From a virus (Duplodnaviria; Heunggongvirae; Uroviricota; Caudoviricetes), in IMG/VR virus record IMGVR_UViG_2718218131_000002: DNA of 64,000 nt; one strand, 5' to 3'. The position numbers and the translations under genes are program-made. This document shows, one piece after another, positions 3,904-21,558 of the stretch. The notes beneath the pieces are model-generated. The model was given only the letters and a program-made list of their open reading frames with translations, made no database searches and had not been told where the DNA came from. Each line of letters opens with the position of its first letter. Within the stretch, counting starts at the first letter, position 1.

Positions 3904-4155
3904 TGAGATTAAAGTTTATTAGTTCAGATATTGATTGGCTCTTTTGTGGAGTAGGGTAGAGTTAGTGTGTTTGTCTGCTTGGTGCCAGCAGCGGATATGT
4001 TTAACAACAGAAAGCATTCAGCATGGTTAGTGGATTTGCAAAGTGGATTAGGATTTGAGAAACTTTGATGAAGTTGTAAAGCTTGTTTCTATAAAAATAG
4101 AAATTTAACTAATAGTTAAACACACCTCCAGCTTCATTGAAAAGGATTATTAGCT

Positions 4156-4443
4156 ATGATTGATCCACTTATTAGAAACTTACAGAGTGATATTGCACTA
4201 CTCCAGCTTTATATCGCGCAACGCAAACAGGCAGGCTTTCATGACATGGAAAGAATAATTGAGTCATTGACCATCTTTATGTTTCGCGCGCTGAAAATGG
4301 GTGAACTGGTAAACATGAATCAGATTAAAGTTAATTTTCCCGCCATTGATTTAGCTGATAATAAAAACATGATAGCAGTTCAAGTTACTACGAATGCAAG
4401 TCCAGCAAAAATTAAAAAACTATCGAATCTTTTGAGAAAATAA
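4156..4443 (+). CDS. Hypothetical protein, N-terminal part of a probably frameshifted ~300-aa gene (AT-rich accessory island)
   Basis: ATG with AAGGAT ribosome-binding site; the ORF ends just after an A6 run while the downstream frame is already open from 4416. Confidence 0.45.
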   Translation: MIDPLIRNLQSDIALLQLYIAQRKQAGFHDMERIIESLTIFMFRALKMGELVNMNQIKVNFPAIDLADNKNMIAVQVTTNASPAKIKKLSNLLRK

Positions 4444-4559
4444 ATGAAATAGGAGAGAGTCTGAAAGATAAATACTCTACTTTATATATTTTTGGTTTTT
4501 GTAAAGCCTCAAGATACCTAACTCCAAGTTATTGTAAAATAATCGACCCCAGCTATTTC

Positions 4560-5054
4560 GTGAATGAACTTTGCGATAAAGCAGATGAAGATATGGTCCA
4601 GGATATGATTGACGCCATTCGACGCCATCATGATTATACATCATTACATCCATGGAGTGATAAAGATTCACTCGAAATTATACTCAATATTATTAATCGC
4701 AATGCAATAAAACATCGGATGAGTTGCGAAGGCAGTCTGTCTGATATGCTCACTGGTTTAAAAGAAATTAATGAAGTAATTACAAAAGGAACAATTCAAC
4801 GTAAGCAACGTTCAAAATCGATATCTGACTTCAAAGATCAAAGCATGGTGAAATTTATGAGAGGTGTAATGGATGATTTGTCTGTTATTCAAGCCATAGT
4901 GAACAAATCTAAAGTTAACCAAGGTGATATGGTTTATATAAGCCATGAAGATATGATTAATATTGATAAATTAAAAGCTAAAATAGCAAGTGATTCATCA
5001 GAGATTGCAAGGCTAAATAATATTGATATAACACTAAATGTTGTTGATTTATAA
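4560..5054 (+). CDS. Hypothetical protein, C-terminal part of the same disrupted gene
   Basis: Reading frame is open from 4416 (no start codon until GTG at 4560) and overlaps the end of the upstream ORF; AT-rich codon usage. Confidence 0.45.
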   Translation: MNELCDKADEDMVQDMIDAIRRHHDYTSLHPWSDKDSLEIILNIINRNAIKHRMSCEGSLSDMLTGLKEINEVITKGTIQRKQRSKSISDFKDQSMVKFMRGVMDDLSVIQAIVNKSKVNQGDMVYISHEDMINIDKLKAKIASDSSEIARLNNIDITLNVVDL

Positions 5055-5368
5055 TTGTCGATTTAGCAAAACAGAGAATGCTTTGAAAGTTTCACCGAGA
5101 AATATTTATTGTGAACCTCCTTATTGTTTATCGACTTTTACTCTCCGCTCATTGCAGTACTGTCGGAGAAGGCTACTATGTACAAGAAGCAGCTAACATA
5201 AGCGAGCATCACTATTGATATTAGGAAGAGTATATAAAAACTTCATGCTGAACCTTACAAAAGTAGGTAAACCGGCAATGGCCTAAGTGGCAGGGTCATG
5301 TTGATCCGGCACTGCCGAGCTAATAATTAACAAGCAAATCACTCTTTCTAATAATTTGTTGAAATAAA

Positions 5369-6028
5369 CTAAATATGTATATGTTTACCAACAACCACAT
5401 ATGAACTACCTGCTTTGCTCCATGATTTTATTATTTCTAAATTATTATCTGAGCATATTTTACTTACAGTATCCACATCTAATAAACCATAGTAGAAAGC
5501 ATTGCGAGAGTTTTGGTATATATACCCATGCAAATGTTTAATACCGCTCTCGTACCTCTTGAAATAAGAACTTTTGTATTGATTGACAATCAGTGCTTCA
5601 CCATCACTCTTTAATAATTCTCTAATCGCACTGAGGACTTTGTGAATTGTGGATTCACATGGAATTGCGGAAAGCACGTTTGCGCAAAGTATGAAATCAT
5701 AATGATTTGTTATTTTATCTATATTTTCATAAGAAACAATATTAGCATTCTTATAGTTATTTATCACGTAATCTGGAATCGTGGTTTGTACACCTCTGAT
5801 AATTTGCACTCTTTCTAGTTGTCTTCTGGAATCTAAAAATGTCACAGTTTCAAATTTATTTACTAATTGTTCTGAATATCTAAGTTTTCCACATCCAAAA
5901 TCAAGGGCATTGCCATTTTTATTAGTGCTTTCAATCTGTTTACAGAGATAGTTAGATGGCATAGTGTGCGGTTTCGCTGCATTTTCTGAACGTATGTTTA
6001 TTCCATTTATTTTGTAATTCAAAATCAA
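5369..6028 (-). CDS. Class I SAM-dependent methyltransferase (219 aa)
   Basis: Motif I LDFGCGKLRYSEQL, acidic motif FLD and ILCANVL motif; about 30% GC; 6 bp downstream of the membrane-protein gene. Confidence 0.7.
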   Translation of the reverse strand: MILNYKINGINIRSENAAKPHTMPSNYLCKQIESTNKNGNALDFGCGKLRYSEQLVNKFETVTFLDSRRQLERVQIIRGVQTTIPDYVINNYKNANIVSYENIDKITNHYDFILCANVLSAIPCESTIHKVLSAIRELLKSDGEALIVNQYKSSYFKRYESGIKHLHGYIYQNSRNAFYYGLLDVDTVSKICSDNNLEIIKSWSKAGSSYVVVGKHIHI

Positions 6029-6034
6029 CCTCGT

Positions 6035-6742
6035 TTAAAAAATATTGTTATTGTTAAAGAATTCTTTTATTTTGCTATCAGGTATTTGTCTTACTTGGCT
6101 TTCTGTTCTTGGTTTAACTGATGCTATGAAAATAAGGAAGTCAAATGCGACAAGAGAAATAATCCACAACCAAAGATTAATTAAAGAGCCAGTAACAGAG
6201 AATATATTTGTTAATTTGGCGATACTTATTATTAAAATAGTAACAAATGCGATTACTGTATGTTCAAAGAAAACCCAAAAGTAATAAACTTTGTTCCAGA
6301 AAAGTTCAACGTAATGTTTGTCTTTTAACTCTTTAACTTCTGGGTAATACAGTTTACTCATTACCTTGTGAGATTCATCAGTAGTTAATTTTCTCGTAAC
6401 GCCTGCAATTTTTGCTAATGGTTTAATAATTAAATGACTATCCCACATCTTCCTTATTCCAATAATTTTTGCTACATTATTATGTAGATCTAAAGCTCCA
6501 CTAATTACTGACCAAAAAACTGAAGATGCAATTGGTAATATGCCAAAGGTTAATATCCATTTAATAAATTCCTCGTAGTCTTTAACGGGGGGGATATACT
6601 TGGCATTAATGCCAACCAATGGCATGTAGCCATAAATGACTAATGATAGGTAAAATATAAATGTAGTAATAAAAGTCGCCTTATGGAGCATAGGCAACAT
6701 TTCATTATAACTCTTTGGTGGTTCTAACATTTTACTCTCCAA
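6035..6742 (-). CDS. Multi-pass integral membrane protein (235 aa), unknown function
   Basis: Several long hydrophobic segments (FITTFIFYLSLVIYGY, ILTFGILPIASSVFWSVISG, FVTILIISIAKL, LWLWIISLVAFDFLIFIAS); apparently co-operonic with the methyltransferase. Confidence 0.6.
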   Translation of the reverse strand: MESKMLEPPKSYNEMLPMLHKATFITTFIFYLSLVIYGYMPLVGINAKYIPPVKDYEEFIKWILTFGILPIASSVFWSVISGALDLHNNVAKIIGIRKMWDSHLIIKPLAKIAGVTRKLTTDESHKVMSKLYYPEVKELKDKHYVELFWNKVYYFWVFFEHTVIAFVTILIISIAKLTNIFSVTGSLINLWLWIISLVAFDFLIFIASVKPRTESQVRQIPDSKIKEFFNNNNIF

Positions 6743-7171
6743 ACACTCAAAAAAAAGCTAATCTTCTATAATAACGAAATTCAGCTGGCACAATTAAAGA
6801 TTAATTGCCACCAATTTCTTGATTTTATAATTTTATCTAAATGTTTTTGATTAATCTAGTCCTAAAAGAAACCTACTGCATAAATATTTATGCTGATGAC
6901 CCACTCCCTGTTCGTTAACACATAGCAACGTTAGTAATGCATCCTAAGTGATCAATATTTTTGCTAGCTTCATCTGCTCGCTCAAAGGGAACTATAATGT
7001 TGGCTTGCGTGTGACTTGGCATGTTTAAAGAAGTGCTGGTGGTGACTGGTTGCTGTTTTCCATTTCCACAGAACAAAATCATAGAAACTATACCCAGTAG
7101 TTGTATTGAATCACTGACGAGACAGCCTCATATTTATCAGGACTGGTGTACGTCCAATACAGGAGGTTGTG

Positions 7172-7267
7172 GTGCTGGTTCTCAAATGTGCGCTGGCTAT
7201 TGCTGCTGTAATGGCAATTTATTGTCTTGCTGTTGTTCTTATGGATCACCTTTCTGATTGATTTCAT
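7172..7267 (+). CDS. Candidate small hydrophobic peptide (31 aa, MLVLKCALAIAAVMAIYCLAVVLMDHLSD)
   Basis: Canonical AGGAGG ribosome-binding site 5 nt upstream of GTG; one transmembrane-like helix; it overlaps the listed Cys-rich ORF in another frame. Confidence 0.3.
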
Positions 7268-7472
7268 ATTGGCGAGGTAACGGTAGTTAAGTAGAATTGC
7301 TGCGGGTGCTTGAGGCTATCTGCCTCGGGCATCAACACCAAAGGCAGATAGAGAAAAGCCCCAGTTAACATTACGCGTCCGGCAAGACGCTTAACATTAA
7401 TCTGAGGCCATATCTATGCTCTACACACGTAGGTTAGCCTCTTACGTGCCGAAAGGCAAGGAGAAGCAGGCT

Positions 7473-7628
7473 ATGAAGCAGCAAAAGGCGATGTTAATCG
7501 CCCTGATCGTCATCTGTTTAACCGTCATAGTGACGGCACTGGTAACGAGGAAAGACCTCTGCGAGGTACGAATCCGAACCGGCCAGACGGAGGTCGCTGT
7601 CTTCACAGCTTACGAACCTGAGGAGTAA
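7473..7628 (+). CDS. hokD: Hok/Gef-family type I toxin (51 aa), HokD/RelF-like, with an in-frame Mok-like upstream extension from 7416
   Basis: MKQQKAMLIALIVICLTVIVTALVTRKDLCEVRIRTGQTEVAVFTAYEPEE; structured leader upstream; terminator downstream. Confidence 0.8.
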   Translation: MKQQKAMLIALIVICLTVIVTALVTRKDLCEVRIRTGQTEVAVFTAYEPEE

Positions 7629-7793: not shown

Positions 7794-8444
7794 ATGAATG
7801 AAAATCAGTTAGCTCCTTGTTGGGAATTTCAACCTTATCTTGCTGAAAACTATGTTCGCCACTTGTTGGCGGAGATCGCTAACGTACTTGAGCAGCTGTA
7901 CTATCATAAGCACGCATTAGACAGCAACTGGTCTGAAGGTGTAAGGGCTTATGATTGGGTCAGAAATCATCTTATTCAAAATGAAGATGCAATTCCTGGC
8001 CTTGAGATGATTTCCAAGGGGTTGGACTATGTAGTTGCTTTAAATAAAGTTCCGCTACAATTTACCAAAGATTGCATTAATAACCCCAAAAAGAAACATC
8101 GTCTGCGTCGAAATAAAGTAGAGTATGAGCAACTCTCATTGTTTGGTGATGTTGAGGCTGAGCAAGATATTACATGGCGAGTCATAGCTGAGCCTTTTTT
8201 ATCCGAAGAGGGCGATGGTGAATTAGAGTCCACACTGCCTCGTTGGGAGGTAGCTCTTGTTGGATTTAATACTTATGGTGCTCAGATTAGTATAGTTTCT
8301 CATCAATCTACAGCATCGATGCCGCTTATGCCTCTTGATTATAACACACTCCCTGACGAAGCGGAGATTAATAAGGTGCCTCTTCGTCGGCGTACGAAGG
8401 ATAAAGATTTGGATGTGAGCAGTGATGGAACATCAGGTGAATAA
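7794..8444 (+). CDS. Hypothetical protein (216 aa), partner of the downstream HTH-peptidase gene
   Basis: ORF overlaps the next gene by 23 bp; no recognisable motif; acidic C-terminus. Confidence 0.5.
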   Translation: MNENQLAPCWEFQPYLAENYVRHLLAEIANVLEQLYYHKHALDSNWSEGVRAYDWVRNHLIQNEDAIPGLEMISKGLDYVVALNKVPLQFTKDCINNPKKKHRLRRNKVEYEQLSLFGDVEAEQDITWRVIAEPFLSEEGDGELESTLPRWEVALVGFNTYGAQISIVSHQSTASMPLMPLDYNTLPDEAEINKVPLRRRTKDKDLDVSSDGTSGE

Positions 8445-20344: not shown

Positions 20345-20671
20345 ATGACTAAAAATACTCGTTTTTCCCCCGAAGTCCGTCAGAGGGCGATTCGTATGGT
20401 TCTGGAAAGTCAGGGCGAATATGACTCACAGTGGGCGGCAATTTGTTCCATTGCCCCAAAGATTGGCTGTACACCGGAGACTCTGCGTGTCTGGGTACGC
20501 CAGCATGAGCGGGATACCGGAGGCGGTGATGGCGGGCTCACCACCGCTGAACGTCAGCGTCTGAAAGAGCTGGAACGTGAAAATCGTGAACTGCGCCGCA
20601 GTAACGATATCCTTCGCCAGGCTTCCGCTTATTTTGCAAAGGCGGAGTTCGACCGCCTCTGGAAAAAGTGA
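20345..20671 (+). CDS. IS3-family transposase OrfA (108 aa)
   Basis: [55 protein letters not shown]. Confidence 0.85.
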
Positions 20672-21558
20672 TGCCACTGCTGGATAAGCTGCGTAAGCTG
20701 TACGGGGTCGGACCGGTATGCAGTGAACTACATATTGCCCCGTCAACGTATTACCACTGTCAGCAACAGCGACATCATCCTGATAAACGCAGTGCCCGTG
20801 CGCAGCGCGATGACTGGCTGAAGAAAGAGATACTGCGCGTATACGATGGGAATCATCAGGTATACGGTGTGCGTAAAGTCTGGCGTCAGTTGTTACGGGA
20901 AGGAATCAGGGTAGCCAGATGTACAGTGGCGCGCCTCATGGCGGTTATGGGACTTGCCGGTGTTCTCCGGGGTAAAAAGGTCCGCACTACCGTCAGCCGG
21001 AAAGCCGTTGCCGCAGGCGACCGCGTAAACCGTCAGTTTGTGGCAGAACGTCCTGACCAGTTGTGGGTGGCTGATTTTACTTACGTCAGCACATGGCAGG
21101 GGGGCGTCTATGTGGCGTTCATCATTGATGTGTTTGCCGGATACATCGTGGGGTGGCGGGTCTCATCGTCTATGGAAACGACATTCGTGCTGGATGCTCT
21201 GGAGCAGGCGTTATGGGCCCGTCGACCGTCCGGCACAGTCCATCACAGTGATAAAGGTTCTCAGTATGTATCGCTGGCCTACACACAGCGGCTTAAGGAA
21301 GCCGGATTACTGGCATCAACAGGAAGTACTGGTGACTCGTATGACAACGCGATGGCGGAGAGCATCAATGGCCTTTACAAAGCGGAGGTAATACACCGTA
21401 AGAGCTGGAAAAACCGGACAGAAGTGGAGCTGGCCACACTCACGTGGGTGGACTGGTATAACAATCGACGATTGCTGGAAAGGCTGGGCCATATCCCACC
21501 GGCAGAAGCAGAAAAAGCTTATTATGCTTCCATCGGAAACGATGATCTGGCAGCCTGA
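20668..21558 (+). CDS. IS3-family transposase OrfB (296 aa; DDE integrase core)
   Basis: Overlaps orfA in the -1 frame; DDE catalytic region. Confidence 0.85.

Follow-up and report, generated by a model that had tools for sequence, protein, structure and literature searches.

The main result of our analysis is that two adjoining minus-strand genes in an Escherichia coli prophage, one coding for a multi-pass membrane protein and the other for an S-adenosylmethionine (SAM)-dependent methyltransferase, are an allele of the gene pair ymfE-ymfD found in the e14 prophage of E. coli K-12. The stretch of DNA analyzed is the IMG/VR virus record IMGVR_UViG_2718218131_000002 (64,000 nucleotides, hereafter the window), which represents a Qin/Rac-type lambdoid prophage of E. 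coli, and the pair is located in its nin region (5369-6742, minus strand). A first-pass annotation, made from the letters alone, had found no system that could be named for this pairing. This part of it has to be revised, as the pair is homologous to e14 ymfE-ymfD and YmfE has been renamed “Kunado” in a preprint of September 2026 (bioRxiv 10.64898/2026.09.05.749240). The YmfE family is already known, although only newly described as anti-phage, and the window pair is a new allele of it. The reading that we favor, and consider rather probable, is that these two genes form a membrane module active against phages, in which the methyltransferase is the partner of the membrane protein and which travels on prophages and other mobile elements as AT-rich cargo.

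The e14 genes of K-12 match the window pair over 98% of its length, with 69% nucleotide identity and the same gene order. At the protein level YmfE is 60% identical to the window membrane protein over 230 of its 231 residues (E 2e-108), and YmfD is 68% identical to the window methyltransferase over the full length. Both pairs are also tightly coupled, AT-rich (33% GC in e14 and 31% in the window) and carried by a prophage next to another defence-type gene. They differ in position, the e14 pair being at the attachment-site end and the window pair within the nin region of a different prophage, and in their neighbors, i.e., a divergent gene for the Lit protease in e14, and in the window a convergent SMEK nuclease gene and a divergent hokD/sok locus. 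Identical or nearly identical DNA was found in 150 of the 5426 complete E. coli genomes, and, when the search was made more sensitive, another 283 genomes were found to have the version annotated as ymfE and ymfD of e14 (~69% identity over 98% of the query), so that some allele of the pair is present in 433 genomes (ca. 8%). In two strains, H37 (NZ_CP196743.1) and H78 (NZ_CP024155.1), the pair is broken by insertion sequences (ISApl1 and IS1A).

The preprint describes how the nucleoid protein H-NS binds and compacts the lit/ymfE locus of K-12, silencing it, and how in a delta-hns strain the deletion of ymfE restores the infectivity of T5-like phages (bioRxiv 10.64898/2026.09.05.749240). According to the same authors, a prophage-free strain is protected from T5-like phages with different receptors when it carries ymfE, cloned with the native promoter, on pBR322; adsorption is left unblocked, and a block in DNA injection is suggested. 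By homology, the membrane protein of the window would be a defence component that stops T5-like phages after adsorption. Its phage range may nevertheless be different, given that about 40% and 32% of the residues of the two proteins differ from those of the K-12 pair. In another study, ymfE is listed as “essential only by TraDIS” (transposon-directed insertion sequencing), meaning that few or no transposon insertions were recovered (PMC5821084), and occlusion of the locus by H-NS is a possible cause. With regard to ymfD, it goes unmentioned in the available text of the preprint, and the only functional test that we found was a knockout examined for N6-methyladenosine (m6A) in mRNA, in which no specific role was detected (PMC12096079).

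In the window, the pair belongs to an AT-rich island (approximately 4000-7000, 29-34% GC over a background of 50%) located between a DUF977 gene and hokD. The island contains three genes, the plus-strand SMEK-domain gene and the two minus-strand genes that converge with it. The GC content of the pair is 31.3%, close to the 30% first estimated, compared to 50.2% for the whole window. Judging from the sequence, the layout is operon-like and tightly coupled. The longest open reading frames (ORFs), 5369-6028 and 6035-6742 (both minus strand), are separated by the 6 nt originally annotated, a gap that becomes 12 nt with the likely starts, on which the Shine-Dalgarno spacing and the RefSeq annotation of identical DNA concur. 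With these, the membrane protein gene extends over 6035-6730 (minus strand, 231 aa) and starts at an ATG (GGAG, 6 nt, ATG; alternative upstream TTG at 6742), and the methyltransferase gene over 5369-6022 (minus strand, 217 aa), starting at a TTG (GAGG, 6 nt, TTG; alternative TTG at 6028). Within the 12-nt spacer (6023-6034, minus strand) the ribosome-binding site of the methyltransferase gene, GAGG (6032-6029), is found directly 3' of the TAA stop codon of the membrane protein gene (6037-6035). The region upstream of the operon (6731-7303, minus strand) is again AT-rich (GC 0.29-0.38), is bounded by sok/hokD and is expected to hold the promoter; by likeness to e14 we presume that it is bound by H-NS and that the module is silenced in this way. 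Compared to an 86%-identical allele, the ratios of nonsynonymous to synonymous substitution rates (dN/dS) were 0.11 for the membrane protein gene and 0.28 for the methyltransferase gene, indicating that both are under purifying selection. These values, together with the widespread homologues, rule out that they are chance ORFs in AT-rich DNA.

The preprint treats K-12 YmfE as a lone membrane protein (bioRxiv 10.64898/2026.09.05.749240), whereas the comparative evidence points to a two-gene system. We scanned an alignment of the methyltransferase against one genome per species and obtained 53 loci, belonging to Pseudomonadota, Bacillota, Planctomycetota, Acidobacteriota, Nitrospirota, Verrucomicrobiota, Gemmatimonadota and other phyla. 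Two more loci (L003 and L004) were added, and the ORFs of all 55 were searched with a profile of the YmfE-like proteins. A gene for a YmfE-like protein of ~230 aa with four transmembrane (TM) helices was directly adjacent, and on the same strand, in 54 of them; at the remaining one the methyltransferase gene was at the end of its contig. The membrane protein gene comes first in 41 loci and the methyltransferase gene in 13. The median intergenic distance was -11 nt, with 51 of the 54 pairs overlapping or no more than 30 nt apart, and this overlap in most of the loci is consistent with translational coupling. An exhaustive profile search from the side of the membrane protein provided 537 clusters of YmfE-like proteins at 50% identity, nearly all of ~230 aa, and in the sample taken from this side a methyltransferase gene adjoined the membrane protein gene in the eight informative cases (P0031, P0039, P0190, P0200, P0230, P0250, P0260 and P0290). 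In IMG/VR, close homologues were found on 28 prophage contigs, all of which have both genes. The co-occurrence that the first-pass annotation had proposed to check was confirmed in both directions, the two genes being found together wherever either was found, in a census of 55, 28 and 8 loci out of a family with 537 clusters.

The association is maintained over large distances. The two genes are still adjacent in L003, with 34% and 46% identity to the window pair, and in the relaxase-bearing element L004 (59% and 63%). The matrices of pairwise identities of the two families are correlated (r 0.76, a value reached by none of 2000 permutations), with a mean pairwise identity of 36% for the methyltransferase and 27% for the membrane protein. 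An all-against-all clustering of the neighboring genes at the 55 loci yielded no third conserved gene, which argues against the pair being a remnant of some larger operon for biosynthesis or modification. The accessory module first proposed is supported, here as a horizontally moving prophage cargo. One further copy, 73% identical to the window pair, is located at 1891-3263 of L085; the flanking ORFs resemble phage tail/baseplate genes by eye only and, if they truly are such genes, the cargo moves between unrelated phage types.

The membrane protein has four hydrophobic helices, at about residues 15, 58, 150 and 184, and its AlphaFold2 model is all-helical (predicted local distance difference test, pLDDT, 86.6), in agreement with a multi-pass protein. 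In 50 homologues the number of lysines plus arginines averaged 17.8 on the N-terminal tail, the ~73-aa segment between TM2 and TM3 and the C-terminal tail taken together, and 2.1 on the two short loops, the positive-inside rule being satisfied in 50 of 50. This distribution predicts a topology with both termini inside and only ~23 periplasmic residues, and the fusion of cytoplasmic enzyme domains to the C-terminus of some relatives (see below) points the same way. The conserved central domain of ~70 aa would then be cytoplasmic, and the same is predicted for the side of the polar residues conserved over the whole family (Y8, H83, R93, D97, Y129, D137, W152 and E156). A 12-residue periplasmic insertion (IPPxKDY) is restricted to the gammaproteobacterial subfamily. 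No match to this protein was obtained in Pfam, PADLOC, PHROG, NCBIfam or PDB sequence-profile searches, and its model had no informative structural neighbor in the PDB or among viral proteins and no transporter-like fold.

The methyltransferase presents the features of a class I SAM enzyme, i.e., a Rossmann-type fold, a GxGxG motif I (LDFGCG) and the acidic residue of motif II, and it scores above the Pfam cut-offs for Methyltransf_12 (35 bits, cut-off 30) and Methyltransf_23 (34.2 bits, cut-off 27). As originally noticed, there is no DPPY/NPPY motif anywhere in the sequence; in addition, we found neither the PC motif of C5 methylases nor a target-recognition domain, and no DNA-methylase family of Pfam was matched. 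In PADLOC-DB 2.0 neither protein of the pair matches a system-specific model, the methyltransferase giving only the generic mad2 (19 bits, E 1e-4). A PDB sequence-profile search detected no solved relative. The nearest folds are those of small-molecule methyltransferases, among them toxin- and halide-methylating enzymes. The TehB family is matched in Pfam (PF03848, 24.4 bits, cut-off 20.4), but the NCBIfam scores of 28-29 bits are far under the curated equivalog cut-offs of 218 and 303, and the sequence has conserved motifs unlike those of TehB (an N-terminal ENAAKP, and CxNVLSAIP). Identity with TehB was consequently dropped. Overall, the profile and structure searches provided only generic matches for this protein, which we predict to be a catalytically intact enzyme that does not act on DNA.

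In some lineages the membrane protein carries additional domains. A C-terminal TIR_2 domain (74-85 bits) is fused to it in L057, L058, P0160, P0162-P0164, P0167, P0169, P0175 and P0176, and a C-terminal PNP_UDP_1 domain, of the nucleoside-phosphorylase superfamily, in P0250 (60.8 bits), where the methyltransferase gene is still upstream. In P0190 (L090, 3544-4986) the YmfE-like four-TM protein is followed by ~250 C-terminal residues that were not assigned to any family, again with the methyltransferase gene upstream; the flanking genes code for a ResIII helicase and a reverse transcriptase, and the extra domain may be a further type of effector. The methyltransferase gene was adjacent in all the fusion loci checked (L057, L058, P0190 and P0250). 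The TIR fusion of L057 (671-3214, from a metagenome-assembled genome of Binatia) has a further C-terminal domain, Lcl_C (59 bits), located beyond one more predicted TM helix. The neighborhoods of the pair contain HamB (Hachiman), RmrA, KAP NTPase, reverse transcriptase, resolvase, integrase and transposase genes. HamB-type helicase genes were found at ~1.8 kb or less from the pair in L003 (1-1836), L024 (1309-3828) and L016 (7776-10310), in Pseudomonas and Amphritea. The PADLOC models for Hachiman HamB were matched by two neighbors, presumably those of L003 and L024, and the L016 helicase was assigned by its BLAST clustering with the HamB-type neighbors and its DEAD, ResIII and Helicase_C domains.

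We propose the following picture. The membrane protein would be a four-helix protein of the inner membrane whose conserved polar residues, like nearly everything in it that lies outside the membrane, face the cytoplasm, and in some lineages it would drive classical effector domains. The methyltransferase, probably co-translated with it, would act on or with this cytoplasmic face, and its target could be the membrane protein itself, a small ligand or a phage component at the membrane. It may tune or license the module, or extend its range, rather than being the part that kills; we prefer such a role to that of an obligatory activator because YmfE alone has been reported to be sufficient against T5-like phages. 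The nearly constant methyltransferase gene, overlapping in most loci, the conserved face predicted to be cytoplasmic and the TIR and PNP relatives argue for a two-gene unit using methylation of something other than DNA.

Several observations weigh against this interpretation. The anti-phage data come from one preprint that is not peer-reviewed and concern a K-12 allele with 60% identity, from which the activity of the window allele is presumed by analogy. In the available text of that preprint the hits of the e14 deletion screen were lit and ymfE only (bioRxiv 10.64898/2026.09.05.749240), and ymfE is described as cloned alone and sufficient, so that the sole known phenotype apparently does not depend on the methyltransferase. 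The structural neighbors of the methyltransferase are generic and indicate no substrate. A promoter scan upstream of the operon gave no convincing minus-strand sigma-70 match. Lastly, no relative of either protein was found in 50,697 deposited phage genomes, so that most of the carriers may be islands and prophages that are defective.

One rival explanation is pure superinfection exclusion, in which the membrane protein alone would plug or disturb the entry of DNA at the inner membrane, as proposed in the preprint, and the methyltransferase would be a linked gene with an unrelated job. The prophage location, like that of the classical superinfection exclusion genes, and the protection by YmfE described as cloned alone, against phages with different receptors and with adsorption unblocked, are in its favor. 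On the other hand, it does not account for an overlapping pairing that is nearly universal across phyla and exists in two gene orders, TIR and PNP fusions are unexpected for a passive plug, and a protein with so few residues predicted in the periplasm and its conserved polar residues in the cytoplasm is not easily seen as one. Moreover, many carriers are not prophages, and the family is present in phyla with very different envelopes, Bacillota included. We regard this alternative as unlikely, if the strongest among the rivals. Somewhat less likely still is an abortive-infection or toxin-antitoxin (TA)-like pair, with a membrane-damaging or effector-activating toxin that methylation would keep inactive until infection. 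Tight translational coupling is common to TA pairs, the TIR and PNP domains of the fusions are of a kind typical for effectors of abortive infection, the K-12 locus is strongly silenced at the level of transcription, and a restraining enzyme would explain why the loss of the methyltransferase need not abolish defence. Against this, multicopy YmfE without YmfD is evidently tolerated by a strain lacking e14, and the Keio knockout of ymfD grows normally. The first-pass annotation had offered a toxin-immunity or a defence pair; defence is the best-supported reading, while toxin-immunity found no specific support, and in the preprint YmfE, described as cloned alone, was tolerated and active.

A third mechanism, which we hold to be improbable, combines a signal enzyme and an effector: upon infection the methyltransferase would produce a SAM-derived or methylated messenger, and the cytoplasmic domain of the membrane protein would bind it and switch on the output of its membrane, TIR or PNP part, a logic similar to that of Pycsar, CBASS or Thoeris. 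The architecture of two genes, one for an enzyme and one for a partner with interchangeable effector add-ons, speaks for it, as do the folds of small-molecule methyltransferases and the better conservation of the methyltransferase (36% vs. 27%), often seen in signal-making enzymes. However, YmfE alone is reported to be sufficient in K-12, the membrane protein contains no recognizable known ligand-binding domain, and we found no precedent for such a messenger. The same folds, with the toxin- and halide-methylating enzymes among them, and the weak Pfam match to TehB could be taken as signs of a non-immune module for detoxification of, or resistance to, small molecules, composed of the methyltransferase and a membrane transporter or anchor. 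We give very little credit to this possibility in view of the low NCBIfam scores, a membrane protein whose fold is not transporter-like, the phage phenotype of the K-12 homologue, the TIR fusions and the neighbors from defence islands. The least credible explanation of all is a DNA methyltransferase, either orphan or paired with the SMEK nuclease for restriction. The adjoining nuclease-type gene has diverged in parallel with the pair within one enterobacterial lineage, but the enzyme has only 217 aa and lacks the DPPY/NPPY motif, a target-recognition domain and any DNA-methylase Pfam match, and SMEK is absent from most of the loci and a pseudogene in the window, where the pair genes are intact.

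The SMEK-domain gene (4156-5054, plus strand) is of nuclease type, with SMEK_N scores of 67.9 bits in Pfam and 99.8 bits in NCBIfam. Nuclease domains of the SMEK type have been described in proteins that partner short prokaryotic Argonautes (PMC10810196). The gene corresponds to the frameshifted one first annotated as convergent with the pair, and a 1-nt deletion in an A7 tract near 4414-4419 indicates that it is a pseudogene in the window. The intact allele has 299 aa and is found in FORC064 and in most of the IMG/VR copies, and L068 has a similar split. This splitting at the A tract could reflect phase variation or a sequencing error. SMEK accompanies the pair in 27 enterobacterial loci of one lineage, within which both have diverged in parallel (83-89% vs. 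84-91% identity), and in strain EC28 the block formed by SMEK and the pair occupies a different lambdoid prophage, in the opposite orientation with respect to the backbone. The gene is absent from e14 (Lit is in the neighboring place), from L004, L080, L082, L083 and L085, and from all the distant loci. We dismissed SMEK as an obligatory third component on the basis of its restriction to one enterobacterial lineage and its pseudogene state in the window. It is probably a lineage-specific passenger that travels together with the pair, an independent defence gene inactivated here.

At the other side, the island is bounded by the sok/hokD locus (7304-7628), with the hokD toxin gene, divergent from the membrane protein gene, and the sok antisense RNA (7304-7478, 114 bits in Rfam). 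Just past hokD there is a 216-aa ORF without annotation (7794-8444, plus strand) that overlaps the start of a gene for a 368-aa protein (8422-9528, plus strand) with HTH_3 and Peptidase_M78 domains (ImmA/IrrE-type, with the motif HELGH); these two could be a regulatory or a defence-type pair. Further along, a 351-aa DUF968 protein (10293-11348, plus strand), with a C-terminal part resembling the HNHc_6 nuclease, is encoded just upstream of the gene at 11349-11714. The window also contains the DicF RNA (175-226), dicA-, dicC- and ydaT-like genes besides the DUF977 gene, and a cluster of three tRNA genes (13949-14195) followed by the small RNA STnc100 (14274-14464). An ALIL pseudoknot, a frameshift signal of IS3 type, at 20626-20742 suggests a transposase within the prophage.

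Compared to the preprint, our analysis adds a methyltransferase as a nearly constant partner, a conserved face predicted to be cytoplasmic, fusions to TIR and PNP domains and a distribution over many phyla. A broader interpretation, which we regard as less likely than not, is that “Kunado”, rather than being an exclusion protein of a single gene, belongs as the membrane subunit to an ancient immune system of two genes, present across phyla, in which the output of a membrane sensor-effector is under the control of a dedicated SAM methyltransferase. The control might be exerted by methylation of the cytoplasmic domain or by a methylated messenger, and the output might be the membrane domain itself or the appended TIR or PNP domains. 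If true, this would represent a control step based on methylation in anti-phage immunity that does not involve the modification of DNA. As E. coli K-12 has both genes and the Keio collection covers them, the proposal can be tested directly. With an allele in ~8% of the E. coli genomes, the family may also shape the susceptibility to the T5-like phages used in phage panels.

Small inner-membrane proteins encoded by phages or prophages and proposed to act after adsorption include Imm of T4, SieA of P22 and gp15 of HK97. The window family resembles these superinfection exclusion proteins in having a small inner-membrane protein carried by a prophage and, as reported for the K-12 allele, acting post-adsorption. 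It differs in the nearly constant enzyme partner, the conserved cytoplasmic face, the TIR and PNP fusions and a distribution that goes far beyond phage genomes, and we found no similarity in sequence or fold between its membrane protein and any viral or solved protein. The TehB enzymes share with the methyltransferase the class I fold and the weak match to PF03848, while the NCBIfam cut-offs and the other conserved motifs set them apart. A soluble modifying enzyme encoded beside its partner protein is also found in CheR with the chemoreceptors and in type VII TA systems; the window methyltransferase could similarly act on the cytoplasmic domain of its partner, although only the generic methyltransferase fold is in common and there is no demethylase partner. 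Pycsar, CBASS and Thoeris are immune systems that combine, in two genes, an enzyme and an effector. Like them, the window family consists minimally of two genes, has outputs of transmembrane, TIR or nucleoside-phosphorylase type on the partner that is not the enzyme, and appears in defence islands. The enzyme, however, is a SAM methyltransferase instead of a nucleotide cyclase or a TIR protein, it is apparently dispensable for the single known phenotype, and the four-TM module is never replaced, only extended.

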